Shown here: positions 13,799-42,975 of the stretch, piece by piece | Numbering within the stretch: position 1 is the stretch's first letter | Layout: each line of letters opens with the position of its first letter | Assembly (NCBI GenBank): GCA_018608405.1 | Contig: JABAZP010000032.1 | Coordinates: forward strand, 17,956-81,955 | From: Flavobacteriales bacterium | Lineage (GTDB): Bacteria; Bacteroidota; Bacteroidia; Flavobacteriales_E; Vicingaceae | DNA length: 64,000 nucleotides | Reading direction: 5' to 3' | Position numbers and translations under genes: made by a program | The notes under the pieces: generated by a model | What the model saw: only the letters and a program-made list of their open reading frames with translations | Told to the model about the DNA's origin: nothing | Databases searched by the model: none

Positions 13799-13910
13799 AA
13801 TGGTGTAAATGAGGGGATTCAAGTTTTTTAACAAAAGTTAAGAATCCAAATGTAGTTATTTTATTTTTCGCAAAAAAATGTTTTGAATTGCGCAAAATAT
13901 TCATATAATG

Positions 13911-14011: not shown

Positions 14012-14242
14012 GTGTCGAGCGAATTAAACTTTTTAAGTTTTACATCAAAGGAGTTTCAAGTTGAAGTCGGATCATTGAGTTTGCAAACTGAGTATAGGAA
14101 TTTGCCAAACTGGAGTTCATTGAATGCGTTAATCTTTATTTCTGCTATTAATGATGAATATAATGTCTTGATATCTTCTACTGACCTATCTATGTCAAAA
14201 ACACTTGGCGATTTGTTCACTATTATTCAAAGCTCAAATTAG
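14012..14242 (+). CDS. Acyl/peptidyl carrier protein-like (phosphopantetheine-binding)
   Basis: 76-aa ORF from the track. Ser35/Ser36 in YRNLPNWSSLNALIFISAINDEY sit at the position and W-x-S-L context of carrier-protein attachment serines. The stop overlaps the GTG start of the KAS III gene. The start is uncertain: I could not reproduce the first ~10 track codons when reading the bases by eye. Confidence 0.55.
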   Translation: MSSELNFLSFTSKEFQVEVGSLSLQTEYRNLPNWSSLNALIFISAINDEYNVLISSTDLSMSKTLGDLFTIIQSSN

Positions 14243-15237: not shown

Positions 15238-15245
15238 TTGAGAAA

Positions 15246-17575: not shown

Positions 17576-17667
17576 TAGCGTCGATTTAAATACTTTTTTG
17601 GTAAAAGTAAATTTTATAAATCAAATTAAACAACCCCAATTTTAGGTAGCAAGAACCGATTTTAAAC

Positions 17668-19772: not shown

Positions 19773-20473
19773 ATTTAGAATTCACAAAATCTATTCTTGA
19801 TTATATAAAAAGTCCTTCAGACGTAGATAGCTTAACTAAGTTTGAAGAGCTGATTTATAATAAAGAAAGGCTTACGTTGATTGAAAGAAGCTTTTACGAT
19901 AAGTTCATTGTTTTTCTAATTTACAACGATATATCAAAAGTACAAGGAGATGTGGTTAATGTTGGAATATTTAGAGGAGGGTTTTCTCTTTTCTTAAAAG
20001 CTTTCTTTTCAGACTTGCACATTACCTGTCATTTTTGGTTATTCGATTCCTTCATAGGGTTTGAGAACTTGAACCCTGATAGTAAATTAGAGAAGGAGTC
20101 TTTATTGTGGTTTAATTCATACCTAGAAAAAATAAAATTTCCATCTCATCAATCAGTTTCAGAGCTTTTTGAAAAATTTAATATGACTGAAAGTCTTTCA
20201 ATTATTGAAGGGGATATAGAAGAAACATACCGACACTTTGACGGGGATAGTATAAGTATTCTGCATATAGATGTTGATTTTTATTCGCCAACATATAATA
20301 GTTTAAAATTCTTCTATGATTTGGTTTCTATCGGCGGCATAATTGTAATTGATGATTATTATTTAGAGCAAACCAATTGTAAAGAAGCAGTGGATAGTTT
20401 TAGAATAGAAAAAAATATCCAATCACCGTTGATTAAATTGGGTAACTACCAAGTAGGGTGGGTAAAAAGTTAA
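19769..20473 (+). CDS. TylF/MycF-family class I SAM-dependent O-methyltransferase (copy 1)
   Basis: VVNVGIFRGGFSLFL (SAM loop) and LHIDVDFYSPTYNSLKFFYDLVSIGGIIVIDDYY. ATG 19769 forms an ATGA overlap with the wzt stop. The track start 19745 lies inside wzt. Confidence 0.8.
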   Translation: MNLEFTKSILDYIKSPSDVDSLTKFEELIYNKERLTLIERSFYDKFIVFLIYNDISKVQGDVVNVGIFRGGFSLFLKAFFSDLHITCHFWLFDSFIGFENLNPDSKLEKESLLWFNSYLEKIKFPSHQSVSELFEKFNMTESLSIIEGDIEETYRHFDGDSISILHIDVDFYSPTYNSLKFFYDLVSIGGIIVIDDYYLEQTNCKEAVDSFRIEKNIQSPLIKLGNYQVGWVKS

Positions 20474-20474
20474 T

Positions 20475-21341
20475 ATGCAAAAGTTAAAAGACGAATTATC
20501 TAAAATTTATACATCTAAGGTGTTTCAAGATTTTTTGATCAGAAATAATCGTTTAGTTCAATACCATTCAGAGTCTTATAAAGAGTATTTTGGATTCAAT
20601 ATTAATCGTGGGAAAGCTGAAAACATAAAATTTTATATAACTTATTTAAGGCACCTAAGCGAAAAGGAGCTGGTTCAGTTATTAGGATTTAATCCTCCCA
20701 TAAATCTAAAAAAGGCATTCCAAGAGAGGAGTAATAATTATGACCCTAAAAAAGGTGGTACGGGGACAACTTTTACATTTAAATATGATGTTGGAGCAAA
20801 TCGTTTTACAATTGGGGTCTATTTTTTAATAAATAATAGTAAAGGGTGGAATATAGATGATTATCCGTTTTTAGTTAATTATAAAGAACAAACAGGTGAA
20901 GGTGTCGAGTTAAGCAGTGAGTACTTGTTGTATTATGAGTTTGACACTAACCACGAAATGTTAAATACAAGAATCCACTGCTACTCAAAATCCAAAAAAT
21001 TATTCAGTTTTTTAGAAAAAAAGTATGATCAAGTTATACAGCCTTTTACGCATGAGTTAGAAATTTATTTTGATAGAAAATCAATGAATAAGTCTAAGGT
21101 AAATTTATTAATGGACTTAGTAATGTTCAGAGGGCCATATCAAGAGACTAGGTCAGGGAGAGAAATTTCTAATTTTATCAAACGCAACTCCTTTTTAAAT
21201 AAGTTTTTACCTGTTTGCCCAGGTTTTTATAGTGATAGTAGTATTCTGTCAATTTACTTCATGAACCTTACGGCGGAAATAGATAGTCCAATTCACACCT
21301 TTGAAAATTTATTTAATGTATTAAATTATGAATATCAGTAG
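20475..21341 (+). CDS. Hypothetical 288-aa protein with five-fold beta-hairpin periodicity (see findings)
   Basis: Compactly packed ORF (2-bp gap upstream, 14-bp overlap downstream). No signal peptide, no TM helix, no named motif. Confidence 0.6.
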   Translation: MQKLKDELSKIYTSKVFQDFLIRNNRLVQYHSESYKEYFGFNINRGKAENIKFYITYLRHLSEKELVQLLGFNPPINLKKAFQERSNNYDPKKGGTGTTFTFKYDVGANRFTIGVYFLINNSKGWNIDDYPFLVNYKEQTGEGVELSSEYLLYYEFDTNHEMLNTRIHCYSKSKKLFSFLEKKYDQVIQPFTHELEIYFDRKSMNKSKVNLLMDLVMFRGPYQETRSGREISNFIKRNSFLNKFLPVCPGFYSDSSILSIYFMNLTAEIDSPIHTFENLFNVLNYEYQ

Positions 21342-22035
21342 TTTAAGCACAGTTGTAAATAGTATTAAGTTTATCCCTGAGGAGGTATCCGAATTTGACT
21401 TAGGAGATTTTCTTTATTCGGAAGATATCGACATTTTACTGCATAAATCTCAGTTAAATCATTTCTTAGATATTTTAGAATTACACAATGCATATGAAAT
21501 AGAAGGAGATATTGTGGAATGCGGTGTTTGGAGAGGAGCATCTGCTGCCATTCTCAAATCAAGTGTAAATGCAATATCCCCTAGCAAAAAAATGTTTTTG
21601 TTTGATTTTTTTGGCGAAGACGTAACTTTAAATCTCGATAAATTAACGGTCAAAGAAAAGTTATTAATCAATAGGGTTGATGGTAAAAAAATTAAGCTAC
21701 CGAACTTGGAGAGTGTTAAACAACAACTAGAAAAGTTTAAGTTGCTAGATGATTCGGTATATTTTGTTCAAGGTGACGTAATTGAAACCACCCGGAAAAG
21801 CCAACTGGGTAAAATCTCGCTTCTACATCTTGATTTAGATTTTTCTTACACAACAGACTTTGTTTTAAACCAACTTTATGACAGAGTTGCAAAAGGGGGA
21901 ATAATTGTAATTAATGATTATAACATGCAAAGTTTAGATTGTAAGAGAGCTGTGGATGAATTTATGAATCAGCATCAAATTAAAAATAAACTCATCGAAG
22001 TGGGCAGTCATCTTGCTTATTGGATAAAGGATTAA
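21328..22035 (+). CDS. TylF/MycF-family O-methyltransferase (copy 2)
   Basis: IVECGVWRGASAAILK and LHLDLDFSYTTDFVLNQLYDRVAKGGIIVINDYN. Confidence 0.8.
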   Translation: MNISSLSTVVNSIKFIPEEVSEFDLGDFLYSEDIDILLHKSQLNHFLDILELHNAYEIEGDIVECGVWRGASAAILKSSVNAISPSKKMFLFDFFGEDVTLNLDKLTVKEKLLINRVDGKKIKLPNLESVKQQLEKFKLLDDSVYFVQGDVIETTRKSQLGKISLLHLDLDFSYTTDFVLNQLYDRVAKGGIIVINDYNMQSLDCKRAVDEFMNQHQIKNKLIEVGSHLAYWIKD

Positions 22036-22038
22036 AAT

Positions 22039-23616
22039 ATGCAGGTTCCAATAGCATTCTTTATTTACAAAAGACCTGAGTTAACCAAAGCGGTTTTCCA
22101 GCAAATTATTGCATCTCAATTAAAAGACGTATTTGTGTTTGCTGATGGACCAATTAATGACTTAGAAAAAGAGAAGTGCGAAGAAACTAGGGCAATTATA
22201 GACCAGTTTCAAGACGGTAAAATGCGACTCCACAAACATTACCAAGAAGACAACATTGGGCTGTATGAAAACATCAAGCAAGGATTGAGTTTAGTATTCA
22301 CTCAATTCGATCAAGTAATAATTTTAGAGGATGATTGTATGCCTCATCAATCGTTTTTTACATTCTGTTTAAAGAATTTAGAAAAGTTTAGATACGATCA
22401 TCACATAATGCAAATTAGCGGAACTTCATTGTTGAATGATAGTGATGGAGGCTTTAAGTCACTAGAGTCAAAGTATAGTTTGCCAAATTGGGGTTGGGCT
22501 ACTTGGAAAAGAGCTTGGGAAAAATTTAATCCAGAATTTACCACCTTCAAAACGAACGAGGACTTTTTTACAAAAAAATTAATTAATGACGATAGTTTAC
22601 CAATAATTAAAGCGTTAAGCTCATTAAGTTATGGAAATAGAAATTCTTGGGATGTTCAATGGATGGCTGATTTGTGGATAAATGGTGGACATACGATCCT
22701 ACCAAGCACTAATTTGATAACTAACCTGGGTAATGGTGAGGGCTCTAGTTATATGCCTGAGTCAAGCCCTTTCTGCATTCCAACTCCCAACCAGGAATTG
22801 GAACTCGTTTCGAATATATATGAGAAAATTTCTATTGAGCAAGAGTCAAGGATTGAAAGTTCCGTAGCAGACCTTATTGATGGATTTATTAGTGCAAGTC
22901 AAGATGTTTTTTCTCTTACAAAGCAAATTATAAAACACATAGAGCCAAGAGGATATAAAGAAAAATATAGTTCATTAGAGGAGCTAAAAGAGGATTTGAT
23001 TCCTTTACCAAAATTCACCTTATTACCTAAGTCTTTTTTCAATTTGTTTTTAGAAAAATATTCTAAAAAGGATCCTATTTTTAATGGAAACTGGGTTCAA
23101 GTTGGTTGTTGGAAAGGCGGGAGTTCTTTATTCTTAGCCTCCTTGAGGGAAGAAGCTAGAGCAGCGGGAAAATTATTTATAATTGATACATTTGGAGATA
23201 TACCTACGAGTAATCTGCATTGGGAAAAGGATATTGCCTTTGTAAATTATTTTCAAATGAATTCTCCAATTTCAAGTTACAAATTAGAAGTCGAAAGCCT
23301 TTTAAGAAAATATGACTTACTTGAAGCTTCGAGAATAATAGATACTACAATTGAATCTTTATTACCTGAGCAATTACCAGAACAAATAAGTTTTGTTTTT
23401 ATAGACTTAGATTTTTACGAACCAACTTTGTTAAGTCTAGAGAAACTATATAATTCAATTGTGAAAAATGGCGTTATATTAATCGATGATTATTATTCAC
23501 CATTCTTTAATTGCAGAGAGGCGGTTGATCACTTTTTTACCGTAAAAAGGGAAAAAAGAGAAGTAAGTTTTGAGCAGTTTTCGAGTAATATTTTAATGAT
23601 TCACAAACATGGTTAA
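22039..23616 (+). CDS. Bifunctional fusion: GT-A (GNT-I/HlpA-like) glycosyltransferase domain plus TylF-type methyltransferase domain (copy 3)
   Basis: The N-terminal half (VPIAFFIYKRPELT...FADGP...ILEDDCMP...LPNWGWATWKRAW) is paralogous to the next gene. The C-terminal half has WVQVGCWKGGSSLFL and VFIDLDFYEPTLLSLEKLYNSIVKNGVILIDDYY. Confidence 0.75.
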   Translation: MQVPIAFFIYKRPELTKAVFQQIIASQLKDVFVFADGPINDLEKEKCEETRAIIDQFQDGKMRLHKHYQEDNIGLYENIKQGLSLVFTQFDQVIILEDDCMPHQSFFTFCLKNLEKFRYDHHIMQISGTSLLNDSDGGFKSLESKYSLPNWGWATWKRAWEKFNPEFTTFKTNEDFFTKKLINDDSLPIIKALSSLSYGNRNSWDVQWMADLWINGGHTILPSTNLITNLGNGEGSSYMPESSPFCIPTPNQELELVSNIYEKISIEQESRIESSVADLIDGFISASQDVFSLTKQIIKHIEPRGYKEKYSSLEELKEDLIPLPKFTLLPKSFFNLFLEKYSKKDPIFNGNWVQVGCWKGGSSLFLASLREEARAAGKLFIIDTFGDIPTSNLHWEKDIAFVNYFQMNSPISSYKLEVESLLRKYDLLEASRIIDTTIESLLPEQLPEQISFVFIDLDFYEPTLLSLEKLYNSIVKNGVILIDDYYSPFFNCREAVDHFFTVKREKREVSFEQFSSNILMIHKHG

Positions 23617-24466
23617 CACTCCAGTAGTAATTTTTTTATACAAGAAATTGGCTTCTGTTGAGATAATTTTAAATAAGCTTTGTAAAAGCGCTCCATCAAC
23701 GGTTTACATTGTAATGGATGGGCCTGAAGACCTTAAAACTAGAGAAAGGCAGAACGAAATAATGGAGGTAATTAGCATATTTAACTTTACCGTCCCTTTT
23801 CAAATTATTCGTCCAAAAGTTCATTTGGGAATCAGAACAATCATTCAATTTGGATTAAACAAGGTTTTCGAAACTGAAGAGCGCGCAATAATTCTAGAAG
23901 ATGACACTTTACCTTCACCCCTGTTTTTCAACTTTTGTGAAAAGATGTTGAACCAATTCGAGAATGAATCAACCGTTGGCTGTATAAACGGATCTAATCT
24001 AGGAATTGAAGCAGGGAAACAACACTACTTTATGTCCAAGTTAAGTCTGCCCTTTTGGGGCTGGGCAACTTGGAAAAACCGATGGGAACAATTTCCAGAG
24101 AAGTATGATTTTTGGTTGAAATTTAGGGCACAACAATCAAATCATGAGATATTTGAAGAAAGCACTCTCGCTATATTTGATCGCTTTGTGAAGAAAGATA
24201 AATCGTGGGATGTAAAGTGGGCGATGTATTTATTAGCTAGTTCTTTAAGAACTGTTTTCCCGGGTGAAAATTTAATTTCAAACGTAGGGTTTACCGGCGA
24301 AGCAACTTTTACGAACATTTCTAACTCTAGTTTTTCCAATTTGGCTGCAGAAGAATCTACCTTTGGAGAAGAAGATTTTAAGGAAGAAAAACAGTTGGAA
24401 GATAAATATTTATTAAAAACTAAAGAACTTATTCAGGAAATGGCAAGAAGAGATACCAAACTATGA
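23609..24466 (+). CDS. GT-A fold glycosyltransferase-like protein (GNT-I/HlpA-like), paralog of the N-terminal half of 22039..23616
   Basis: TPVVIFLYKK...VMDGP...IILEDDTLP...LPFWGWATWKNRW...SWDVKW aligns with the upstream fusion protein. Confidence 0.7.
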   Translation: MVNTPVVIFLYKKLASVEIILNKLCKSAPSTVYIVMDGPEDLKTRERQNEIMEVISIFNFTVPFQIIRPKVHLGIRTIIQFGLNKVFETEERAIILEDDTLPSPLFFNFCEKMLNQFENESTVGCINGSNLGIEAGKQHYFMSKLSLPFWGWATWKNRWEQFPEKYDFWLKFRAQQSNHEIFEESTLAIFDRFVKKDKSWDVKWAMYLLASSLRTVFPGENLISNVGFTGEATFTNISNSSFSNLAAEESTFGEEDFKEEKQLEDKYLLKTKELIQEMARRDTKL

Positions 24467-25335
24467 AACGACCAATTTTTAAGAATCAAGAACACGACAA
24501 GCTATATTTAAGGAATGGATATATCCAGTCGAATTTACTTTCGTCTAAGCAAGTTGAGTATCTCTTGGGAAAAATTTTAGAACTTAAACCTGACGATAAT
24601 TTTTCGCCAGATCGGAAGGGAGCTTCGAACTATCATTGTTCCTTTTTAGATACAAATGAAGAATATAAAAAAGCATCTAACAGGCTATTCAAATCTGTTT
24701 TTAATCCAATAGTTGATACCCTTTTCCACAACTACGAAATTTGGAATGCCAATCTATATGTAAAACAACCCGGCAAAGGGAAGTTTGAGATTCATCAGAA
24801 CTGGACTCATGTGGAAAAAGAAGAACAGACAACATTTACGATTTGGTGCCCATTAGTTGATACATCAATTGAAAACGGAACATTAGCTTTGGTAGAAGGT
24901 AGCCATAAGATAATAGCTGACCTTGCAACATTGAATGTTCCTTATTATTTTAAAAACTTCGAAGCTAAACTTTTAGAGAAATATCTTAAGCCAATGCCTT
25001 GTTCAGCAGGAGATGCTATAATTTTTGAAGATGGAGTGATTCATTATTCAGATGTAAATAAATCTGATAAGCCTAGGTATGCATTACAAATATTGATTGG
25101 ACCTAAAGAAGTGAACCCTGTCTACTATTATTTTGATGAGAGTAAAAACGAATTTGAAGTATTTGAGATTAATGAAGATTTTTTCTTGAAAAATAATTAC
25201 ACGACTTTTCATAAAAGACCTGCAGATCATGTTTCAAAAGGAAGCATAAAGAATGAAAATAGGTTAATTGAAGAAGAAGGATTTGTTGAGGCTTTGAAAA
25301 ATGGAAATCTAAGAAGAGAAACTCTTTATTCATAG
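24463..25335 (+). CDS. PhyH-like Fe(II)/2-oxoglutarate dioxygenase homolog with HxN in place of HxD
   Basis: Aligns by eye with the two paralogs at 34751 and 35838: FEIHQNWTHVE vs MLHQDWNVVDE, ENGTLALVEGSHK vs RNGCIQVLKGSHK, GDAIIFEDGVIH vs GDAIVFRHSVIH. Confidence 0.65.
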   Translation: MKRPIFKNQEHDKLYLRNGYIQSNLLSSKQVEYLLGKILELKPDDNFSPDRKGASNYHCSFLDTNEEYKKASNRLFKSVFNPIVDTLFHNYEIWNANLYVKQPGKGKFEIHQNWTHVEKEEQTTFTIWCPLVDTSIENGTLALVEGSHKIIADLATLNVPYYFKNFEAKLLEKYLKPMPCSAGDAIIFEDGVIHYSDVNKSDKPRYALQILIGPKEVNPVYYYFDESKNEFEVFEINEDFFLKNNYTTFHKRPADHVSKGSIKNENRLIEEEGFVEALKNGNLRRETLYS

Positions 25336-25367
25336 TTTGGTCTTAATTAAAGCAAAATAGGTGCTTA

Positions 25368-27524
25368 ATGAGTAAGGTATTAAATATTACAAACGCAGAT
25401 TTTTTGCAGAACCCTTATATTACTTATGGGTCGCTTAGAAAATTAGGCGCCGTTCATTTTTTGCCAGAAAACAATACGTGGTTGGTCGTTGACTTTGAGG
25501 AGATCAAACAAATCCTGGATAATCCTAGCTTGTTCTCATCTGAAGGCGAAAATGGATTTGATCCGATTTTGCTAAATTGTGACCCTCCGAAACATACACA
25601 TCACAGAAAGATACTAACTGGTGATGGAGCACCTTTCTCTTCTAAGCGAATCTCAAAATTGGAAACAGACAATAGAGAAATTGCACAAGCCCTGCTACAA
25701 CCATTGCTTGAAAATACTAGTATCGAAGTTTTAAGTGACTTTGCACTTCCATTCTCCTCTTTAGTGATTCTAAATTTGTTGGGAATAAACACTCAAAATA
25801 ACGCGGCACTAAAAGCTTGGTCTCAGTCAGTAGTGGCAAATAAACCGAATAGTAAATCTGATTTTGCCGAGCAAAAATGGGAACAGTTGAAACCAATTGT
25901 GAAACAATGGATTAACGATGCAAATAAAAACCCTGAAGGCGAAGGGTTAAGTGAAATCATTTTTCACTCCTTTTCTCAAAAAAATTTTACAGACGAGGAT
26001 ACTCTTAACCTAGTCAAGGTATTGTTGCTCGGAGGTAACGAGACAACACCAAATTTAATTTCTTCTGCCTTGTTGATTTTGTTGAATAATAGTGAACTGC
26101 TTAACGAGGTAAGAAACAATTATGACTTAATTGATGCGGTCATAAACGAAACGCTGAGGTTGGAAACTCCAACCCAAATTATTCATCGTACAACAAGAGA
26201 AAATGTTACTATTGGAAAGAAGCTAATTCCAAAAGGTAGCCTAGTAAGTTTAGCTCTAGGAGCTGCAAATAGAGATCCTAAAGTTTTTGAGAACCCTCAT
26301 AAATTTGATATTAATAGTAAAGAAAGAAAAATACTTTCTTTCGGTTTTGGTCCTCATTATTGTTTGGGTGCTCATTTGGCAAAGCAAGAAGCACAAATTA
26401 CGCTGGAATTGTTATTGAAGAGTTTTCCAGATCTGCGCTTGGATAAACAGGAGCATTTAGTGTATAAGTCTTCTAGCTTTGTGCGAGGGTTGGAAAGATT
26501 AACTATTAAGCTTTCTGAAAATAAGTTTCATAAGCCTATTTCAACAGTTAAAAAAGAGGCAGTAGAGTTGTTGAAGAATTCAACATTGCCAAACGGAGAA
26601 TTTCCAACTTATGAGTATTATCCAAACACTGAAGAGTTAAGGCCAAAAGGATGGCACATTACAGCACCGTCTCCTTTTGTGCACGCCAATGTAGTTTTAT
26701 CATTGATTAATTTGAAGAATATAGGATTGGAATCAGTCATTGTGAAAGGAACTGAATTTATTCAATCTCAAAAAGAATACGGTGACGTTTGGCGGTTTTG
26801 GCAATTTGGCTCTGCTGCCAACAACGTTCCACCAGATGCGGACGATACGGCAATTTGCTCTGCAGTATTGGAGTCGGTTGGGAAGAAACTAGAGAATAGA
26901 AAGTTATTGGAAGCTAATATTGAAGCCAATGGAGTTCTAAAAACATGGATCTCTCCTAAGCTCAGTGATTTTTTTATGAGACCAAGGCTGAGCTACAAAT
27001 GGTGGAGAGAAAAGCAATATTACCAGCCAACGGTTGATGCCAATTTGTTGAATTTAAATGATTTTGAGTTGGGAGTTATGGCGAATACTCTCCTGTATTT
27101 AGGTGAAAATAGCATTACAAAACCAAGCGTTGAACTTTGTATAGATTTATGGAAGGATAACAAGGGTACCAATCATTTCTACAATAACGATATGGTTATT
27201 GCCTATCATATAGCCAGGGCCTATAAACGAGGAATAGCTTCTTTTGAGAAACTGTCAGCAGATATTTTGGAACGAATTGAAATTCGGTTCAACACCCTAT
27301 CTTTTCCGGAATTACTATTAGCAGGCTTGTGTATTAAATACTTTAAGTTAACTACTAACATGGGAAATCGAATTGCTGATAGAGTTAAAAGTAGTGTTGT
27401 TGAAGAAGACTTTGTATTTCCGCACTTTGGGTATTTTACTTCAAAAGATAGAAATTATGTGGCAGGTTCGCCCATGTTATTGGTATGTTGGTTTTTAGAG
27501 TTAAGCGAAGAATGGGACTGTTAA
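25368..27524 (+). CDS. Cytochrome P450 fused to a C-terminal squalene-hopene-cyclase-like (class II terpene cyclase-like) domain
   Basis: P450 signatures: I-helix LLLGGNETTPN, ExxR in NETLRLE, heme loop FGFGPHYCLGAHLA (Cys codon 26361..26363). After residue ~395 the helical-repeat domain carries a QW-like KGTEFIQSQKEYGDVW motif and PPDADDTAICSAVL (DADDTA at 26835..26852). Confidence 0.8.
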   Translation: MSKVLNITNADFLQNPYITYGSLRKLGAVHFLPENNTWLVVDFEEIKQILDNPSLFSSEGENGFDPILLNCDPPKHTHHRKILTGDGAPFSSKRISKLETDNREIAQALLQPLLENTSIEVLSDFALPFSSLVILNLLGINTQNNAALKAWSQSVVANKPNSKSDFAEQKWEQLKPIVKQWINDANKNPEGEGLSEIIFHSFSQKNFTDEDTLNLVKVLLLGGNETTPNLISSALLILLNNSELLNEVRNNYDLIDAVINETLRLETPTQIIHRTTRENVTIGKKLIPKGSLVSLALGAANRDPKVFENPHKFDINSKERKILSFGFGPHYCLGAHLAKQEAQITLELLLKSFPDLRLDKQEHLVYKSSSFVRGLERLTIKLSENKFHKPISTVKKEAVELLKNSTLPNGEFPTYEYYPNTEELRPKGWHITAPSPFVHANVVLSLINLKNIGLESVIVKGTEFIQSQKEYGDVWRFWQFGSAANNVPPDADDTAICSAVLESVGKKLENRKLLEANIEANGVLKTWISPKLSDFFMRPRLSYKWWREKQYYQPTVDANLLNLNDFELGVMANTLLYLGENSITKPSVELCIDLWKDNKGTNHFYNNDMVIAYHIARAYKRGIASFEKLSADILERIEIRFNTLSFPELLLAGLCIKYFKLTTNMGNRIADRVKSSVVEEDFVFPHFGYFTSKDRNYVAGSPMLLVCWFLELSEEWDC

Positions 27525-28564
27525 ACGAAATTTTTACAAGGCTTCGGTCTTTTCTGCTCTATCACAGCATGTTGTTTATCAATTACATTCTGTTGATTTA
27601 TTTTCTGAAATCTATTCCTGTTGATTTTGAGGTTCTGGGCTCGTTAGTTTTAAGTTATATTCTAACAGGTGTTGGGGCCTTTTTGCTAAACGATTATTAT
27701 GATAAGAAAGTAGATTTAAAAGCAGGGAAGTCAAATTTAGCAGAGAAAGCAAATTCTTATTTTATTGGATTTATAGTCTTGTTGGGTTTTTCTGTTTCGT
27801 TTTTTTTAGTGAATAGAATTTCAGAAAATGCAGGTATTTTGCTGTTGGTGCAATTTGCGGCGCTCTTAGCATATTCCCATCCAAGGATTAGATTAAAATC
27901 AAAACCAATTTTCGGAATTATTGCGGATTCAATTTATGCTTATATAATTCCGGTGCTCTTGTTATTTGTCGTTTATAAAATTGAAATAGCGGATCCAAAA
28001 TACCTCGCCTTTTTACTTTTTAACTTTAGCATCGGGCTTAGAGACATTCTGCTTCACCAGAAGAAAGATGAATTGAACGACCTAAAATCTGGGATCAATT
28101 CATTTGCTATTCGATATAAAAGTAAGGTAAACACATTAGTTTATATTTCAGAATTTACGGCTAGTTTGAGTTTGTGCTTTTTTCTAATGTTTGGTTTTTG
28201 GAAACTGGAAAGTCAGACTTACGTATTAGGAATAGGGGTGGCATATTTATTTCTATTATTGTTCGAAATTTTTAGAGTTCAAAAATCAATAGAGAACAAC
28301 TACTTAATACGATTTTATATTGTTATCAGTACATTCATTTTGGGTTATTGGCTTTTGAATGAAAACCTATATGCCTATTTAATACTACTAATTCATCCTT
28401 ATCTATATCAGTTTGTTGTTCAAATTTTTCAACTTATAAATCAATTAAAAATTATGATTTCCGTTGTAGTGAATTATTCATTGTATTATTCATTTAAATT
28501 AATGGGCAGAGATTTAAAAAAGAAACCATTGTATAAAAAACATGAGAAGAAAAATTCTAATTAG
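27485..28564 (+). CDS. UbiA-superfamily membrane prenyltransferase
   Basis: Eight to nine TM helices. First Asp-rich motif LLNDYYDKKVDLKAGK (27689..27715, NDxxDxxxD) and second motif HQKKDELNDLKSG. An alternative start at ATG 27512 would overlap the P450 stop by 13 bp. Confidence 0.75.
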   Translation: MLVFRVKRRMGLLNEIFTRLRSFLLYHSMLFINYILLIYFLKSIPVDFEVLGSLVLSYILTGVGAFLLNDYYDKKVDLKAGKSNLAEKANSYFIGFIVLLGFSVSFFLVNRISENAGILLLVQFAALLAYSHPRIRLKSKPIFGIIADSIYAYIIPVLLLFVVYKIEIADPKYLAFLLFNFSIGLRDILLHQKKDELNDLKSGINSFAIRYKSKVNTLVYISEFTASLSLCFFLMFGFWKLESQTYVLGIGVAYLFLLLFEIFRVQKSIENNYLIRFYIVISTFILGYWLLNENLYAYLILLIHPYLYQFVVQIFQLINQLKIMISVVVNYSLYYSFKLMGRDLKKKPLYKKHEKKNSN

Positions 28565-29528
28565 CTGGCTTTTTTCTATGCTCGTAATTTTCGTTTCTTG
28601 TGAAAAACACAATGAATTAAAAATTAACGATGAAGTTGTTTTAAAACGTTGTACTATTCAGCTTTTTCAAAAAGATAAATTTGCAACAAATTTTGGATCA
28701 ATTGATTTTGTCTATACCGGAGATACTATAAAAAGGAATGTGGATTTAGATTCGAAAGACTTATTAGCGCAATTGAATAACGAATTAAAAAACTTTGACA
28801 CGCTAGACGTGAACAACAAAACTGTTTTATACTTGAAGTCTTTATTCTTGGCCAATTTTGTGCATGCTGCATTTAGTCATCAATTTTTGGGAACAGAATT
28901 AGGTTTGGCTAACGATAGCTTAATTCGAAGTAATTGGGAGGACTATTCATTGGAAGAACAATTTGATTTTGGTAACAAAAATGAAGTGGCTTTTTCATGT
29001 TGGACTAGAACAAAATTTTATTTACAATTGACTCATATGTTACTAGAGCTAAAAGGTAGAGACACTTCCATTGAAAATGTACATACCTATCCGATACTCA
29101 ATATATATGGTTCTGAATATTTAGTAGATCCGTCTGATCCAGCTGTGTTTATAAGTTCTACAACTAATAAAATCATAAAATTCAATGAATTAAAAAGAAG
29201 CTCGGATGTTGTTATTTATAAATTGAATTACAACTTTGGAACTTCTCACTTTATTTTTTCAAATAGTTTTATGAATCGTATTCAACCAGAAGGGAATAAT
29301 TTGAAAGATCAAATTTTAGGGTATTTAGCTCTTAATCAAGAATTAGTGTTAAATAAGGTCCCTGCCTGCTTTAACCCGCACTACAAAAAGAGATGGGAAA
29401 TTTCATATTTAGATGGCAAAAACAATGCGCTAGCTGTTTCGTTATTTGGCAGAAATCTTGGAACGTTTTTGACTCCACAAAATTTTAAGGAAACCTATTT
29501 TGGAGCCAATTGTAATAGCTTGAATTAA
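28542..29528 (+). CDS. Predicted lipoprotein of unknown function
   Basis: MRRKILISWLFSMLVIFVSC with a lipobox-like VSC. 328 aa with no recognisable catalytic motif. Overlaps the UbiA gene end by 23 bp. Confidence 0.55.
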   Translation: MRRKILISWLFSMLVIFVSCEKHNELKINDEVVLKRCTIQLFQKDKFATNFGSIDFVYTGDTIKRNVDLDSKDLLAQLNNELKNFDTLDVNNKTVLYLKSLFLANFVHAAFSHQFLGTELGLANDSLIRSNWEDYSLEEQFDFGNKNEVAFSCWTRTKFYLQLTHMLLELKGRDTSIENVHTYPILNIYGSEYLVDPSDPAVFISSTTNKIIKFNELKRSSDVVIYKLNYNFGTSHFIFSNSFMNRIQPEGNNLKDQILGYLALNQELVLNKVPACFNPHYKKRWEISYLDGKNNALAVSLFGRNLGTFLTPQNFKETYFGANCNSLN

Positions 29529-29534
29529 AGTATT

Positions 29535-31319
29535 ATGTGTGGAATTGTAGGACATATTAAAAGAGACGGAAAAGTTGACCAAGATATTTTTCGCAAAATG
29601 CTCAAAACCATTGAGCATAGAGGCCCTGACGGTGAAGGGGTCTTTATTTCGTCTGATAGTAAAAGAGCATTGGGCCACCGAAGGTTATCCTTCTTAGACC
29701 TTTCAGAATTGGGAAAACAACCTATGAGTAATTCTGAGGCAACCGTTTGGGTAAGTTTCAATGGGGAAATTTACAATTATCTTGAACTAAAAGAAGAACT
29801 GAGAAACGGCTATGAATTTATTACGGGAAGTGATACGGAGGTAATTTTGGCGGCATATCAAGCGTGGGGGATGGATTTTGTGAATCGCTTAAAAGGTATG
29901 TTTGCCATAGCATTACTTGACGAGAAGAAAGAGTTGTTGCATTTGATTCGAGATCGATTTGGGATAAAGCCACTGTATTATGGCGTTCAAAATAACGAGC
30001 TTGTTTTTGCTTCAGAATTGAAAGCAATTATGGAGTCAAAAGTATTCCCTAAAGAGCTGAACAAAAGTGCAATTTCGGATTATTTTGTCTATCGGTATAT
30101 TCCTTCTCCTAAAACCATTTGGGAGGGAATAAATAAACTTCCTCCTGCAAATTATATCACTATTGATTTAAATGACTTGTCTGAGACGACGGTTTGCTAT
30201 TGGGAATTAACATCTTCGAATGAAAAAGCGGAGATTAAAAGTTTAGCAATTGAAACAGAAGAGATTTTAAAAAATTCGGTAAAACAGCATGCACGAGCTG
30301 ATGTTCCTATTGGTTCTTTTTTAAGTGGAGGGTATGACAGTAGTGCTTTGGCATTGTGGATGAAGGAAGAAGGGAAAGCTCCAAATACTTTTTCAATAGG
30401 GTTTGAAAATTGGGAGAAAAGCGAGCATTATTATGCTAAAACAGTTGCTGATTTTTTGGCGTTAGAGAATAACGCTGTTGTTGCTACTGCAGAGAGTCTG
30501 AATTTATTGAAACGAATGCCTGAGGTATATGACGAACCGATTGCAGATATTTCAATTGTACCAACATACATGGTGAGCGCTTTGGCTAGAAAAGAGGTAA
30601 AGGCAGTGTTTAGTGGCGAAGGAGCCGATGAAATTTTTGGCGGCTATACGTGGCAACATGATTTTTTTAATAAAACATACAATAACGGTTTATTGCAGAA
30701 GGTTAAAAATATTTTTAAACCAAAGAATCCTGTTGATTTTTATGCACAATCAATGGCAATGGGTTGGTTCGATTCGCAAGAGTTAAAAAAAATGTTACAT
30801 CCAGATTTACATGTATCAATTCCAAAAGATGTGCATTGGTTTTATAGGCAAAACTTCAGAAAGGATTTAAGTCCTTTTAAAGCCATACAACACATGGACA
30901 TCAAATGTTTTATGGGAGAATTGGTGCTTACGAAAGTGGACCGAGCCAGCATGGCAAACTCATTAGAAGTGAGAGTGCCTTTTTTGGACCATCAACTTTA
31001 TGAGAAAATATTCAGTATCGAAGAGAACCATTACATTGACCAAAATCAGACAAAGAAGGTGCTTTTTGAAACATTGAAAGATAATTTACCAAGTGAAATA
31101 ATAGAACGCAAAAAGCAAGGTTTTGTAGGGCCGGATCAATATTACATGAATATTGAATTTTACAGGAAAGAACTAGGAGAGAGCAACCTCGTGAAGCAAA
31201 ACATTATTCGCAAAGAGTATATAGACGAATTACTGCAAGAATCCTATAATTGGAAGCTCTGGAAAATAGTTGTTTTTGAAAAATGGTTTACCCATTGGGT
31301 TGTGAACTTTGAAGAATAA
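29535..31319 (+). CDS. Asparagine synthase (glutamine-hydrolysing) family amidotransferase (AsnB/WbpS-like)
   Basis: N-terminal nucleophile MCGIVG, GATase class II domain, PP-loop SFLSGGYDSSALA. 594 aa. Confidence 0.9.
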   Translation: MCGIVGHIKRDGKVDQDIFRKMLKTIEHRGPDGEGVFISSDSKRALGHRRLSFLDLSELGKQPMSNSEATVWVSFNGEIYNYLELKEELRNGYEFITGSDTEVILAAYQAWGMDFVNRLKGMFAIALLDEKKELLHLIRDRFGIKPLYYGVQNNELVFASELKAIMESKVFPKELNKSAISDYFVYRYIPSPKTIWEGINKLPPANYITIDLNDLSETTVCYWELTSSNEKAEIKSLAIETEEILKNSVKQHARADVPIGSFLSGGYDSSALALWMKEEGKAPNTFSIGFENWEKSEHYYAKTVADFLALENNAVVATAESLNLLKRMPEVYDEPIADISIVPTYMVSALARKEVKAVFSGEGADEIFGGYTWQHDFFNKTYNNGLLQKVKNIFKPKNPVDFYAQSMAMGWFDSQELKKMLHPDLHVSIPKDVHWFYRQNFRKDLSPFKAIQHMDIKCFMGELVLTKVDRASMANSLEVRVPFLDHQLYEKIFSIEENHYIDQNQTKKVLFETLKDNLPSEIIERKKQGFVGPDQYYMNIEFYRKELGESNLVKQNIIRKEYIDELLQESYNWKLWKIVVFEKWFTHWVVNFEE

Positions 31320-31381
31320 AGGTGTTCAAATAGTTAAATTAGCCCTCCAAAGAAATCAGCATTTCTGATAAAAAGCAACAA

Positions 31382-32560
31382 ATGAGCAATGAAGTTTATG
31401 TTTTTGTAGTTTGTGGAAGCAGCGAGCATATCGATACGCTGCAACTTTCATTAAAAGCGCTCCGATCTTTCTCTAAAAAAGATATTCTTGTTTTAACAGA
31501 TAAAACAAGAAATGATATAGAAATCCTTCACGATGCTATTATCGACGTTCAAACACCAAAAGAGTATAACCATCATCAAGCGAGTATTTATTTGAAAACA
31601 GGAATTCACCAATTTCTTCCCAAAGGTAATTTGTATTGCTATTTGGATACAGATATAATTGCCTTGGATCATTCTTGCGACGAAATTTTCAAAGAGTATA
31701 TTTCACCGATTAGGTTTGCACCTGATCATTGTAAAATAAAAGCATTTAGTGCTTATGCAATTAATTGCGGGTGTATAGATAAATGTTCCGAAGACAGAGA
31801 AGCATATTTTAAGAGTGTTGAAAAGCACGATAAGAATTCAGAGCTAACAGGCACAGTTGCCCGGACCGCTCAAAAGAAGGTTGAGGATTGGTATGGGGAA
31901 CTCCAAAAGTCAATTCTAACAAAGGGTTTTTATACTTTTCGTTATTACATGAGTTTTCCAAAATTTTGGTTAGACAAAGACATTTATTTTGATAAAAAAA
32001 GAAAATTGTGGTCAACAAAAGATGGAGAAATTGTAAAGTATGAGATAGATATAAAAAGCATTGCGAAAGAGGCCAATTTGAAATATACCCTTTGGTTCAA
32101 TGAGTGGAGAAACAAAAAAGGGGAGAATATATTTAAAACCGATTGCAATCATTTAACCGAGTCAATTCACAATACTTTTCAAGTTGATGTGAAAGAGAAA
32201 AATTGGCAACACTGGAATGGCGGTGTATTTCTTTTCGACGATGCTAGTCATAAATTTTTGTCTGAATGGCACAAAAAGAGCGTTCAAATATTCAATAATC
32301 CCAATTGGAAGACTAGAGACCAGGGAACCTTAATTGCAACGGTTTGGGAGTTTGCTTTGCAAGACCATCCAACATTATCAAAAGAATGGAATTTTATTGC
32401 AGATTTTCACAACAACCAATTAGTGGTTAGCAAAGAGACGGATGAAATGTCAGATGACCTATTTAAGTCAACGTACAGGCCAAAATTTGTTCATGTATTT
32501 CATGAATGGGGAAATGAAAAGTGGGCAGTTTGGAATTGGATAAAATCGAAGATTGTGTAA
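31382..32560 (+). CDS. Hypothetical protein, possible nucleotide-diphospho-sugar transferase fold
   Basis: VYVFVVCGSSEHI...LYCYLDTDIIAL (DxD-like DTD) resembles GT8-type cores. Otherwise unrecognised. Confidence 0.5.
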   Translation: MSNEVYVFVVCGSSEHIDTLQLSLKALRSFSKKDILVLTDKTRNDIEILHDAIIDVQTPKEYNHHQASIYLKTGIHQFLPKGNLYCYLDTDIIALDHSCDEIFKEYISPIRFAPDHCKIKAFSAYAINCGCIDKCSEDREAYFKSVEKHDKNSELTGTVARTAQKKVEDWYGELQKSILTKGFYTFRYYMSFPKFWLDKDIYFDKKRKLWSTKDGEIVKYEIDIKSIAKEANLKYTLWFNEWRNKKGENIFKTDCNHLTESIHNTFQVDVKEKNWQHWNGGVFLFDDASHKFLSEWHKKSVQIFNNPNWKTRDQGTLIATVWEFALQDHPTLSKEWNFIADFHNNQLVVSKETDEMSDDLFKSTYRPKFVHVFHEWGNEKWAVWNWIKSKIV

Positions 32561-33004
32561 ATGGGTAATAGGTACAAGAAATTTTTAGAATGGGGAATTT
32601 CAACTTTTGGAGTTGCACTGCTCTATATTATAGGAGTGCTATTATTTAATGAGACCCATCCATTTTCGCGGTTTCCCATGTACAGTAATTTCCCAAATTG
32701 GTCGTATAGTTTTTATTTAACTGACGAAGCCAATGAGATTATTCCATTTTCCAGTTTAGAAACAACCGGAAGCTCTGTTGGACACTTATATGGTAGTGTA
32801 TCTGATGAATTAAATATTCCATACGGAAGCTTTAGAGAATCTGAAGAAGAATTGCAACAAATTGGCGATCGAATGATGTTTGTTTTATTAGAATCAAATG
32901 AGTTAAAATATAAATATATCAACCTGTACCGGAAAGGGTTTTATTACCAAAACGATTCTATCCACGATTTAACAGTTTTAATGACCTCTTATGAACGTCA
33001 TTAA
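32561..33004 (+). CDS. Small single-pass membrane protein, unknown function
   Basis: 147 aa with one N-terminal TM (FGVALLYIIGVLLF). The start abuts the stop of the upstream gene, and the ORF overlaps the next gene by 14 bp. Confidence 0.5.
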   Translation: MGNRYKKFLEWGISTFGVALLYIIGVLLFNETHPFSRFPMYSNFPNWSYSFYLTDEANEIIPFSSLETTGSSVGHLYGSVSDELNIPYGSFRESEEELQQIGDRMMFVLLESNELKYKYINLYRKGFYYQNDSIHDLTVLMTSYERH

Positions 33005-33872
33005 AAATATAAGAATAAGAGGGCTAGATAAAGAATGGATTTTTTTAAAGATCCCATTAATTTGTTTTTGGTTTGGCATTTTTCGTCATATTTTATCTAA
33101 AAATTACAAGGTGCCAATACCTTCGGGAATTTGTAAAATAGTTAATTGCGCTAATCTTATAGAAGGCCATGGGCTATTCTTTATGATCGTGGCAAGCTCT
33201 CTTTTATGCATCATGTATTTACTTGACTTTAAAATGAAATGGACCACTTTGGGTTTGTTTTCTTTGTCAGTTATTGTTTTCACAAGTGAGGATTCTAGCG
33301 GAATCTTAAATCGCAGCGGAACTTTCTCTTTTATATTCCTTGCCCAGTCATTTGCATATTGGATCAATGGGTCGAATCTTTTAAAATTAAAATACTCCAG
33401 AATTCAATATTCGATACAAGCAGTTGTTGTTGGTTATTTTCTTTCAGGTTGCTCTAAACTATTAGATTCGGGTTTAAGTTGGCCTTCAGATGGATCTAGG
33501 ATCACCCTTCAAGTATTAAAGTCATTTTATTACCATTATTATACAACACTTGACAGCACAGAGCTTGTAAAAGCCTATGAAATTGTACAATTTTTAACAG
33601 AATCTCAAAACATTTTGGTTGTTCTTTTAGCTGGTTCTTTAACATTAGAATTGTTTGCATTAACAGCAGCTGTTAATAAGAGTTATGCAAGATTTTATGG
33701 TATTGCTTTGCTTCTTATGCATATAGGAATCTATTATTTTATGGATATACTCATAGTGTCATTTGCTGTTCCGATGGTTTTTGTAATGATTAATCCATTT
33801 TATTTAGCTGTATTTTTATACGACAAAATGTTGAAGAAACCAACATTTCCACATACGTTAAAATCAATGTAA
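32991..33872 (+). CDS. Polytopic membrane protein, unknown function (weak HTTM/DoxX-like feel)
   Basis: 293 aa with ~7 hydrophobic helices. VVGYFLSGCSKLLDSGLSW resembles the G..K(L) helix of DoxX/HTTM-type proteins, but I cannot verify this. Confidence 0.5.
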   Translation: MNVIKNIRIRGLDKEWIFLKIPLICFWFGIFRHILSKNYKVPIPSGICKIVNCANLIEGHGLFFMIVASSLLCIMYLLDFKMKWTTLGLFSLSVIVFTSEDSSGILNRSGTFSFIFLAQSFAYWINGSNLLKLKYSRIQYSIQAVVVGYFLSGCSKLLDSGLSWPSDGSRITLQVLKSFYYHYYTTLDSTELVKAYEIVQFLTESQNILVVLLAGSLTLELFALTAAVNKSYARFYGIALLLMHIGIYYFMDILIVSFAVPMVFVMINPFYLAVFLYDKMLKKPTFPHTLKSM

Positions 33873-33876
33873 TCAT

Positions 33877-34743
33877 TTGGCTATTTTTTGCACCATATCA
33901 ACTCAATCTCATCTCTTTAAAACGTATGCTTTAGCAGATAGCATACAACAATTTGGAGGTCAATTAAAAGTGTTGCTTGTGGATTCAGATGAAGTAAAGA
34001 ATGTTGATAGTATTCCGTCGAATATTGAATTTCATCACTTAGGACAAATAAGTTCTGAACGAATAGAACAAACCAGTAGAATCTATAAAAAAGACAAGCT
34101 TCGTTGGGCTTTAAAACCTGCGTATTTATTGTATTTACTTCCTAATTATCACGCATTAATTTATGTAGATAACGATGTCTTTTTTTATAATGATTTCAAT
34201 TTTTTGTTTGAAGAATTGCAAATCTCTGACGTGCTTTTAACACCTCACTTTTATCCTAGTTCTCCTAAAAACGAGCAAACGTGGTTAGAAGCAAACTTCA
34301 GACTCGGAATGTACAATGCGGGTTTTATTGGGGTGAATGAAAATGCTAAAAATGCTTTAGAATGGTGGTCGGACTGTTGCTTGTACGAAATGAGGAGATC
34401 CTATTGGAGAGGACTTTTTGATGATCAAAAGTATTTAGATTTACTACCGGTGTTATTTGAAAATGTGAAAATTATTAAGAATAGAGGATGCAATTTTGCA
34501 GGATGGAATTCACAGTTAAACATTGATATTAAGCAGATTGTTTTTGTTCATTTTAATTCTTTTACGTCCAAAATATTTAATGAAGAAACCAATAAATATT
34601 TCCCATTAATTAAAAATTACACAAAGCAGCTCAAATTATATAACCCTACTTTTAAGAACAGTAGTAGAGGCTTAGATTTATTCAAATTACAAAATGGCCT
34701 TTATTTTATAAAATGGAAACTGGCACGATTGCTTAATAAATAG
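33877..34743 (+). CDS. GT-A glycosyltransferase (GT8 / nucleotide-diphospho-sugar transferase-like)
   Basis: IFCTISTQSHLFKTYALADS..., LIYVDNDVFFYNDF (DxD), YNAGFIGVN. TTG start per the track, so the start is uncertain. Confidence 0.65.
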   Translation: MAIFCTISTQSHLFKTYALADSIQQFGGQLKVLLVDSDEVKNVDSIPSNIEFHHLGQISSERIEQTSRIYKKDKLRWALKPAYLLYLLPNYHALIYVDNDVFFYNDFNFLFEELQISDVLLTPHFYPSSPKNEQTWLEANFRLGMYNAGFIGVNENAKNALEWWSDCCLYEMRRSYWRGLFDDQKYLDLLPVLFENVKIIKNRGCNFAGWNSQLNIDIKQIVFVHFNSFTSKIFNEETNKYFPLIKNYTKQLKLYNPTFKNSSRGLDLFKLQNGLYFIKWKLARLLNK

Positions 34744-34750
34744 TATAGTA

Positions 34751-35605: not shown

Positions 35606-35837
35606 GTTGATAAGCCAAATAGGATGGCTTTTAGTGTAGCCTTTGTTTTTAGCAGTGCTATTTTTAATGACCACGAATCTATATTTTGCAATTTTTACCT
35701 TCTATTTTGGTGTGTTTAAAAAAATAAACCAAGCTGTAAACTGAAAGAAAGGCAATTCGATAATTTTAAAATGCGGAATACCCTAAATTGTTATTAGAGA
35801 AAATTGTAAGGATGTTGAAAAAAGAAAAGGTAAACAC

Positions 35838-42971: not shown

Positions 42972-42975
42972 CTCA

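Follow-up and report, generated by a model that had tools for sequence, protein, structure and literature searches.

A UbiA-superfamily gene overlapping a P450/terpene cyclase gene

A 64,000-nt stretch of contig JABAZP010000032.1 (positions 17,956–81,955, forward strand) from assembly GCA_018608405.1 (Flavobacteriales bacterium, Vicingaceae), here called the window, contained on its + strand a gene for a UbiA-superfamily membrane enzyme, lying directly behind a gene in which a cytochrome P450 was fused to a terpene cyclase domain. The UbiA open reading frame (ORF; 27485..28564) encoded 359 amino acids (aa) when counted from its first ATG (ORF table and translation), and the stop codon TAA of the upstream gene was at 27522..27524. 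Starting at the ATG at 27485 would give a 40-nt overlap with the upstream gene, and starting at a second in-frame ATG, at 27512, an overlap of 13 nt. The ORF and the two alternative overlaps, as well as the two Asp-rich motifs described below, were thus as given in the original prediction, which had been made by a model from the DNA letters alone; the start was refined as follows.

An overlap of exactly 13 nt between an ATG and the end of the upstream gene (27512..27524 in the window, + strand) was present at six distinct Bacteroidota loci, namely the window and the related loci L001, L003, L012, L013 and L015 (L-numbers denote related genomic loci, and P-numbers homologous proteins of the clade). 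In L001 and L013 it was the sole available start of the UbiA gene, and the N-terminal segment RLRSF behind the 27512 ATG was kept among homologues in an alignment of 22 sequences. For these three reasons the UbiA gene most likely starts at 27512 and not at 27485, and would then span 27512..28564 and encode 350 aa. In the window and 11 syntenic loci the junction of the two genes was an overlap of 13, 8 or 1 nt or a gap of at most 7 nt; loci lacking the 13-nt overlap had junctions of -8, -1 or +1 to +7 nt.

The product of 27512..28564 scored 46.7 bits with the Pfam family UbiA (PF01040; gathering score 34.2, E=3.2e-12); it is a genuine UbiA-superfamily enzyme and not a chance match. The first Asp-rich motif, NDYYDKKVD (N69, D70, D73 and D77), was encoded at 27689..27715 and the second, HQKKDELND (H191, Q192, D195 and D199), followed by LKSGINS, at 28055..28081, both on the + strand. 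D70, D73, D77, K82, N84, Y130, S131, R136, K138, H191, Q192, D195 and D199 were invariant among the 22 homologues, and N69 was nearly so. When the alignment was extended to 60 members, D70/D73/D77 and D195/D199 were still invariant, as was H191, and Q192 nearly. The hallmarks of the superfamily, NDxxDxxxD, DxxxD and a central Y...K motif (Y130, S131, R136 and K138), were therefore all invariant or nearly invariant in both alignments. Invariance of both Asp-rich motifs in 60 members indicated the two-metal arrangement of the UbiA enzymes that use prenyl diphosphates.

An AlphaFold2 (AF2) model of the protein reached pLDDT 85 and pTM 0.81, and showed a polytopic, all-helical membrane fold with a cytoplasmic cap. 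The top PDB matches of this model in Foldseek were solely UbiA-fold membrane enzymes (AfUbiA, Rv3806c, DGGGPS and ApUbiA), with target-normalised TM-scores (TMt) of 0.61–0.65. A single-sequence phmmer search of the PDB gave no match for the UbiA protein, and profile searches did match. From the conserved motifs and the model, the active site looks intact.

Three features marked the protein and its homologues: an AGKxN-type motif behind the first Asp-rich motif, at a place usually taken by an RP-type motif in other members of the superfamily; HQ before the second Asp-rich motif; and a conserved C-terminal extension of ~60–90 residues, ending GRDLKKKPLY.

A class II terpene cyclase domain in the upstream gene

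The upstream gene (25368..27524, + strand) encoded in its N-terminal half (residues ~1–385) a cytochrome P450 (Pfam p450), with the heme motif FGFGPHYCLG at 26340..26369. The C-terminal 333 residues (~26523..27521) gave no Pfam match, and a single-sequence phmmer search of the PDB returned nothing for them. Only four proteins were found by a word-indexed homologue search with this domain, hence the alignment for structure prediction was shallow, despite which the AF2 model reached pLDDT 85.8 and pTM 0.89. Its top Foldseek match was the beta domain of the Aquimarina spongiae drimenol synthase AsDMS (E=2.4e-10, query-normalised TM-score 0.72), followed by monodomain proteins resembling squalene-hopene cyclase, the merosterolic acid synthase MstE (6sbb, E=5.8e-4), drimenyl-diphosphate synthase and squalene-hopene cyclase itself.

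A DxDD-type general-acid motif, DADDT (D490, D492, D493 and T494), was encoded at 26835..26849 (+ strand) and was invariant in five fusion homologues and in the free-standing homologue P0173. A five-sequence profile of the domain matched AsDMS with E=3.9e-6, aligning D492 with the catalytic D333 (N in the D333N mutant chain). By the structural matches and the D492/D333 alignment, this C-terminal region is a real class II terpene cyclase beta domain (TCbeta) with its catalytic Asp in place, which justified the wording "cyclase-like" used of it before.

AsDMS, a HAD-TCbeta protein of marine Flavobacteriia, resembled the window protein in its single beta-domain fold, in the matching catalytic Asp and in being fused to a second catalytic domain, which is a HAD phosphatase in AsDMS but a P450 in the window. 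MstE has the same single beta-domain fold and, like MstE, the window cyclase would work on prenyl-transfer chemistry. Unlike either of these, the window cyclase was coupled to a UbiA gene inside a glycan-type cluster with a Wzm/Wzt transporter. A literature search of limited reach found no paper on a P450-TCbeta fusion, or on a UbiA/TCbeta pair in a Wzm/Wzt cluster.

Conservation of the UbiA-cyclase pairing

Synteny was mapped by hidden Markov model (HMM) and tblastn searches over 17 assessable distinct loci; L011 was too short to judge. In 14 of the 17, down to a UbiA identity of 28%, the cyclase domain was encoded immediately ahead of the UbiA gene. At three loci (L018, L019 and L024) the P450 and the cyclase were separate genes, with the cyclase gene still directly upstream of UbiA. 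In L007/L008 a PhyH gene was inserted between cyclase and UbiA genes; in L014 P450 and cyclase were again separate and the cyclase gene lay on the opposite strand; in L005/L006 the cyclase domain was absent. L045, which carries a more distant UbiA protein, had a 707-aa P450 fusion whose gene overlapped the UbiA gene.

Examination of related genomes for co-occurrence of the two genes, as had been proposed with the original prediction, thus revealed a strongly conserved neighbourhood. Two outcomes had been named there as grounds for giving it up, robust clustering with housekeeping MenA/UbiA/CyoE orthologues and loss of the P450-fusion neighbourhood in related genomes. The subfamily models gave no such clustering (see below), and the neighbourhood was retained.

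Placement of the clade within the UbiA superfamily

The subfamily placement was based on profile E-values and on the model matches of individual clade members. None of the curated NCBIfam subfamily cutoffs (MenA, UbiA, CyoE, DGGGPS and DPPR synthase) was reached by the UbiA protein, the best NCBIfam scores being 21–28 bits against cutoffs above 200. A word-indexed search gave the 22 homologues mentioned above, and an exhaustive profile search of 1.84 billion representative proteins gave 3285 matches at E<=1e-3, 302 of them at E<=1e-30. With 3285 matches in a collection of that size, the large housekeeping families had not been reached, indicating that the protein belonged to a separate clade. 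At E<=1e-30 the clade amounted to ~300 representative clusters (50% identity). Nearly all of these came from uncultured bacteria; they carried no informative annotation, and none of the solved structures was a close relative.

Compared with the PDB, a 60-member profile matched DGGGPS (6m31) best, with E=1.7e-8 over nearly its full length, then AfUbiA (E=2.5e-7) and ChlG (E=8.7e-5). Rv3806c (8j8j) was matched with E=0.049, or 0.31 in another profile alignment, both over the N-terminal half only. Among NCBIfam models, those of archaeal-type prenyltransferases matched 42, 41 and 22 of the 60 members and those of ChlG/BchG 39 and 20; DGGGPS matched 12, MenA 8, UbiA 6 and the two DPPR-synthase models 3 and 2. 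Outside the clade, the nearest UbiA proteins of Bacteroidota genomes were DGGGPS-like, and hhalign aligned them to the clade with a probability of 99.3% (E=1.4e-20). A genome scan with the 22-sequence alignment returned 29 loci, 16 of which (L025–L040) held distant UbiA-superfamily members only; the ten of them that were scanned were DGGGPS-like. On sequence grounds the clade is a distinct branch of the UbiA superfamily that falls in no characterised subfamily and has DGGGPS-, ChlG- and AfUbiA-type enzymes as its nearest relatives.

In the genome scan, all assemblies that carried the clade were from Bacteroidota (Vicingaceae, Flavobacteriales, Flavobacterium, Chitinophaga and unclassified Bacteroidota), apart from one metagenome-assembled genome labelled Bifidobacterium. 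The latter (L019, CAZGVO010000001.1, "uncultured Bifidobacterium sp.") carried a complete Bacteroidota-type cluster, and its label is probably wrong.

The likeness to DGGGPS (6m31/7bpu) and to the DGGGPS-like proteins of Bacteroidota consisted in the best profile match among solved structures, the same fold and an alignment across both Asp-rich motifs. The window clade differed in the AGKxN motif replacing the RP-type motif, in the invariant HQ and in the C-terminal segment, and its context was an export cluster with a terpene cyclase. The window protein had no match to a DGGGPS model at E<=0.01 and those of clade members were below the cutoff; no gene for a PcrB-like GGGP synthase was recognised among the scanned ORFs of the cluster. 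AfUbiA (4tq3–4tq6) provided the top Foldseek match (4tq4, E=1.3e-4, TMt 0.62); AfUbiA and ChlG (9sau) were the second and third best profile matches, with an identity of only 13–15%. The YSAPPLKLK sequence of ChlG resembled the YSxPxxRLK region of the window clade, but the window had no pigment context.

That the protein might simply be a housekeeping quinone or heme prenyltransferase (MenA, UbiA or CyoE/CtaB) standing by chance beside the cluster agreed with its one general Pfam match, to UbiA. This explanation is effectively refuted: the window protein matched no model of these enzymes at E<=0.01, and no CyoE model was among the 25 families listed for the 60 members. The conserved C-terminal extension and the clade signature also distinguished it from the housekeeping enzymes, and the conserved operon context was not that of a quinone or heme locus.

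The surrounding export cluster

The UbiA and P450/cyclase genes lay in a cluster of ~14242..39173 on the + strand, with one ORF resembling a GT-A glycosyltransferase on the - strand. The cluster ORFs were scanned with Pfam and NCBIfam, and several had no family match, among them several with GT-A-like DxD motifs.

At its upstream end (14242..16678, + strand; Pfam), the cluster contained an Arn-like donor module of a KAS III-like gene, an ArnC/GtrB-type family 2 glycosyltransferase (GT2) gene (15246..16160) and a GNAT acyltransferase gene. The GT2 was a full-length match to ArnC (E=1.3e-29), also matched GtrB (E=3.4e-24) and had two C-terminal transmembrane (TM) segments. In L045 (1..3234) a DegT aminotransferase gene joined this module, which thereby looked like an Arn-type pathway serving a glycosyltransferase of the ArnT/PMT_2 type with a GT-C fold. 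The module was followed by the genes of a Wzm/Wzt-type ABC-2 exporter (17668..19772, + strand), a permease (17668..18492; Pfam ABC2_membrane) and an ATPase (18489..19772; ABC_tran). Hardly any locus of the UbiA clade lacked Wzm/Wzt, which was encoded even at the distant L005, L041, L042 and L045. Between 19745 and 23616 there were three TylF-type O-methyltransferase domains in a row, one of them fused to a GT2 (525 aa, 22039..23616), and amid these genes an ORF without family match (20475..21341).

PhyH-family Fe/2-oxoglutarate dioxygenases (Pfam PhyH) were encoded at 24463..25335 (+ strand), 34751..35605 and 35838..36695. In two related loci a short-chain dehydrogenase gene followed the PhyH gene and preceded the P450 fusion (L001 6934..7794; L003 7021..7842). 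In the window only 32 nt separated the corresponding genes (25335..25368), the dehydrogenase gene having been lost or never gained.

Downstream, the start of a lipoprotein-like gene (28542..29528, + strand; a signal peptide and then Cys) overlapped the UbiA stop by 23 nt. Its product had no Pfam or NCBIfam match, and the gene was syntenic in most related loci, usually between the UbiA gene and asnB. The AsnB-type glutamine-dependent amidotransferase gene (29535..31319, + strand; Pfam and NCBIfam) was next to the UbiA gene, or one gene away, in L001–L004, L007–L013, L015–L024, L044 and L045. AsnB was the most constant neighbour of the UbiA clade, more so than the cyclase, and was present even in the cyclase-less L044; its conservation implied a carboxylate-bearing intermediate. 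Two further ORFs conserved in most related clusters (32561..33872), of 147 aa with a single TM segment and 293 aa with ~6, had no family match; they are candidates for a flippase or other membrane partner.

The last gene of the cluster (36696..39173, + strand) encoded a polytopic protein of 825 aa with more than 12 predicted TM segments, an N-terminal loop motif YNMDDELV (NGYNMDDELVTKN) and C-terminal TPRs. Its own matches were to TPR only, and orthologues at 31–35% identity matched Pfam PMT_2. Judged from its sequence and TM profile, it is probably a PMT_2/ArnT-like GT-C transferase. The conserved Arn-like module probably makes a polyprenyl-phosphate N-acyl-aminosugar donor for this predicted GT-C/TPR enzyme.

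In the wider clade, UbiA domains were found in fusion proteins of the architectures PhyH-UbiA-TPR, methyltransferase-UbiA-PhyH-PhyH, UbiA-GT4 and UbiA-GT32, or joined to a second domain of ~8 TM segments (P0142, P0144, P0155, P0099, P0100, P0111, P0156, P0039, P0081, P0095, P0098 and P0115; PhyH domains were fused to UbiA in P0142, P0144 and P0155, and P0039 was the UbiA-GT32 protein). Such fusions tied the PhyH, methyltransferase and glycosyltransferase genes of the window to the same substrate stream. They suggest that PhyH proteins, methyltransferases and a cytoplasmic glycosyltransferase also handle the product or substrate of the UbiA enzyme, and that it is finally exported by an ABC-2 transporter. 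Of the cyclase-less loci, L041 and L042 kept Wzm/Wzt, PhyH and methyltransferase genes, with six PhyH paralogues around Wzm/Wzt in L042, and L043 had a PhyH gene and glycosyltransferase genes, with no Wzm/Wzt within the retrieved stretch.

Outside the cluster, two giant cargo proteins of type IX secretion were encoded at 981..13834 (- strand), one of 3127 aa with Laminin_G_3 repeats and Por_Secre_tail and one of 1119 aa with cadherin repeats and CHU_C; they confirmed that the DNA is of Bacteroidota origin. At 41967..44565 the start of an ATP-dependent DNA ligase gene (537 aa) overlapped a 334-aa ORF without Pfam match; the two may be a ligase-associated repair pair.

Comparison with PRPP-dependent lipid-pentose synthases

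It had been proposed, as an alternative, that the UbiA protein might resemble DPPR synthase and make a lipid-linked pentose for the GT-C enzyme at 36696..39173. It would then be a polyprenyl-phosphate phosphoribosyltransferase (DPPRS or PPPRS), moving ribose-5-phosphate from phosphoribosyl pyrophosphate (PRPP) to polyprenyl phosphate and so leading to a pentofuranose donor for the periplasmic 825-aa GT-C/TPR protein. Characterised members of this group are 31–34% identical to Rv3806c or to one another. In Rv3806c the phosphoribose is contacted by Lys28, Tyr70, Gln135 and Tyr157, sites that are not conserved in the prenyl-transferring UbiA enzymes, and one Mg2+ and a Lys/Arg cluster take the place of two metals; Lys28 contacts the 5'-phosphate and the lipid phosphate, and Gln135 the ribose O3 (PMC10994848). 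Three-component pentofuranose systems are reported to be widespread, and need a 5'-phosphatase and a MATE/SMR flippase and, when the pentose is altered, also DprE1/E2 or an ORF13-type epimerase (PMC11127046).

The window clade shared with the Rv3806c/PPPRS systems the UbiA fold, NDxxDxxxD, the GT-C protein together with a glycan ABC transporter and, in some relatives, epimerase-type neighbours. A GT-C-like enzyme was co-encoded with the clade at many loci, including the cyclase-less L005, and short-chain dehydrogenase or epimerase genes were nearby in relatives. The Rv3806c structure 8j8j matched the AF2 model about as well as did other UbiA folds (TMt 0.61), and F66 (F/Y in the clade), three positions before the ND motif, corresponded to Tyr70.

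At two of the other contact sites the clade had hydrophobic residues. Lys28 aligned to L25, in a hydrophobic or small column, and Gln135 to L127, a nearly invariant Leu, in HMM alignments that were weak in TM1; the position of Tyr157 did not align with the clade profile. The second DxxxD, invariant in the 60 clade members, is replaced in the Citrobacter PPPRS by the loop-IV residues R366 and E369, alanine variants of which stay active (PMC11127046). The window protein matched neither DPPRS model (NF008977 and NF008978) at E<=0.01, these models finding just 3 and 2 of the 60 members, and the similarity of the profile to Rv3806c (E=0.05–0.3, N-terminal half) was the weakest among the matching UbiA families.

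Nor did the companions of such a synthase show up. No HAD/PAP2 phosphatase, MATE/SMR flippase, DprE1-type oxidase or ORF13-type epimerase was recognised by Pfam/NCBIfam among the cluster ORFs, several of which had no match at all and may include a divergent analogue, and the window lacked the short-chain dehydrogenase that relatives have between PhyH and P450. The cluster had its own, separate ArnC/GtrB-type donor synthase, with GNAT (and DegT in L045), a natural partner for an ArnT/PMT_2-like GT-C enzyme. A pentose donor would, moreover, leave the near-obligatory coupling to a terpene cyclase without explanation. Because of the weak similarity to phosphoribosyltransferases, the lack of recognisable companions and the separate donor synthase, the proposal of a DPPR-synthase-like enzyme was not supported, and we consider such a function unlikely.

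Proposed role in a terpenoid pathway

The reading that we favour, with a probability of about one half, is that the UbiA protein is an intramembrane prenyltransferase working in one pathway with the P450/TCbeta protein and supplying the lipid part of an exported glycoconjugate. It continues the other proposal of the original prediction, a prenyltransferase feeding the P450/cyclase protein by meroterpenoid logic. The core of that proposal, terpenoid chemistry, gained from the finding of a real class II cyclase domain and its tight coupling to UbiA, while its aromatic, meroterpenoid detail lost ground, no aromatic-precursor or prenyl-diphosphate synthase gene having been recognised and the closest UbiA enzymes, DGGGPS and ChlG, being O-prenylating.

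For donor, acceptor, order of reactions and final product we infer the following scheme. The UbiA enzyme would bind a prenyl diphosphate via two Mg2+ held by both Asp-rich motifs, ionise it and pass the isoprenoid group to an acceptor. This would more likely be an oxygen nucleophile, because the nearest relatives DGGGPS and ChlG are O-prenylating. The isoprenoid chain would be folded through protonation by the class II beta domain and oxidised by the fused P450. Cyclisation may precede the transfer, with the prenyl diphosphate as substrate (the AsDMS order), or follow it, with the prenylated product as substrate (the MstE order). The terpenoid, of which the UbiA enzyme would have installed the isoprenoid (lipid) part, may be further modified by the AsnB amidotransferase, PhyH dioxygenases, O-methyltransferases and glycosyltransferases, and the Wzm/Wzt ABC-2 transporter would then export it.

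Several results weigh against this scheme. The clade also occurred without any cyclase domain (L005/L006 and L041–L044), so that the cyclase is not required and is rather a clade-specific partner. All likenesses to characterised UbiA subfamilies were far below curated cutoffs. The Foldseek ranking did not split prenyltransferases from the phosphoribosyltransferase, and the comparison of PRPP-contacting residues rested on alignments of low confidence in TM1. Finally, no prenyl-diphosphate synthase gene and no obvious acceptor-making gene were recognised in the Pfam/NCBIfam scan of the cluster ORFs (14242..39173).

The last result, as far as the acceptor is concerned, would suit a UbiA-type terpene synthase in place of a transferase. 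Such a class I-like enzyme would ionise a bicyclic diphosphate made by the class II cyclase from geranylgeranyl diphosphate or another prenyl diphosphate, and either finish the cyclisation or quench it with water, after which the P450 would oxidise the product. The order of the genes (class II cyclase, UbiA, P450) and their tight coupling are consistent with this, the closest solved relative of the cyclase domain uses a prenyl diphosphate (AsDMS with farnesyl diphosphate), and UbiA-type diterpene synthases acting after a class II copalyl diphosphate synthase (CPS) have been documented (PMC10301674). In the platencin pathway, for example, PtmT2 precedes a UbiA-type ent-atiserene synthase: a class II cyclase is there followed, much as may be the case here, by a UbiA-fold enzyme ionising the cyclised diphosphate and by P450 tailoring (PMC10301674). 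That system, likened to the window cluster by its description, is actinobacterial, has a two-domain class II enzyme and lacks a glycan-export context. The wider clade, on the other hand, included members without a cyclase and members fused to glycosyltransferase or PhyH domains, to which a role in lipid anchoring or transfer fits better than that of a stand-alone terpene synthase, and the nearest sequence relatives of the clade are transferases. A terpene synthase is therefore doubtful here.

An aromatic C-prenyltransferase, prenylating a benzoate- or quinone-type acceptor on which the monodomain cyclase then acts, would account for the same three partners. UbiA, monodomain class II cyclase and P450 together resembled the MstE (Mst/merosterol) system, in which geranylgeranyl-dihydroxybenzoate is reported to be cyclised (PMC9401909, PMC12324236). 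MstE was among the structural matches of the cyclase domain, and the window had, as in that system, an adjacent beta-only class II cyclase with the catalytic Asp. For its reaction an AsnB-type amidotransferase requires a carboxylate, such as that of an aromatic acid, and the cluster included a KAS III-like gene. Against this, the scanned ORFs of 14242..39173 included no recognisable chorismate-lyase-type or other gene for aromatic acid supply, nor a dedicated prenyl-diphosphate synthase. The 4-hydroxybenzoate and 1,4-dihydroxy-2-naphthoate prenyltransferase models matched weakly, and in 6 and 8 of the 60 members; ApUbiA, UBIAD1 and similar aromatic prenyltransferases were absent from the profile matches to the PDB. 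The rest of the cluster, with Wzm/Wzt, several GT-A-like proteins, the ArnC-like protein and GT-C, looked like a glycan export locus. Aromatic prenylation is thus improbable as well.

EboC, a UbiA-like prenyltransferase of Bacteroidota and other phyla, farnesylates a hydroxylated quinoline on the way to the drimane-type meroterpenoid thallusin (bioRxiv 10.64898/2026.05.21.724671). The ebo system was rejected as a counterpart, as no eboA, B, D, E or F or TatD-type genes were present in the window and the EboC model NF035940 was not among the matches; the ebo pathway also has no dedicated cyclase, whereas the window cluster has one (bioRxiv 10.64898/2026.05.21.724671).

Returning to prenyl transfer in a terpenoid pathway, a fuller picture can be offered tentatively, with odds well short of even. 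The conserved locus may build an envelope molecule of a kind not described before, a cyclised terpenoid, oxygenated by P450 and PhyH enzymes and joined by the UbiA enzyme to a sugar or other polar head group, which would be glycosylated, methylated, amidated and exported by Wzm/Wzt as a terpenoid-anchored surface glycoconjugate. Its makers would be a new UbiA clade and, together with it, a new P450-TCbeta fusion.

The UbiA fold serves prenyl transfer, phosphoribosyl transfer and terpene cyclisation, so that function cannot be read from the fold alone. Our results caution against labelling a UbiA gene beside a GT-C gene as part of a donor pathway of the mycobacterial arabinose/ribose type. The clade links terpenoid chemistry to ABC-transporter-dependent glycan export, a combination not described in the literature that we found. 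If the proposed role is true, the clade would point to a new class of envelope lipid or glycoconjugate in marine Bacteroidota, and the UbiA/TCbeta/P450 trio would be a new set of enzymes for terpenoid biocatalysis.

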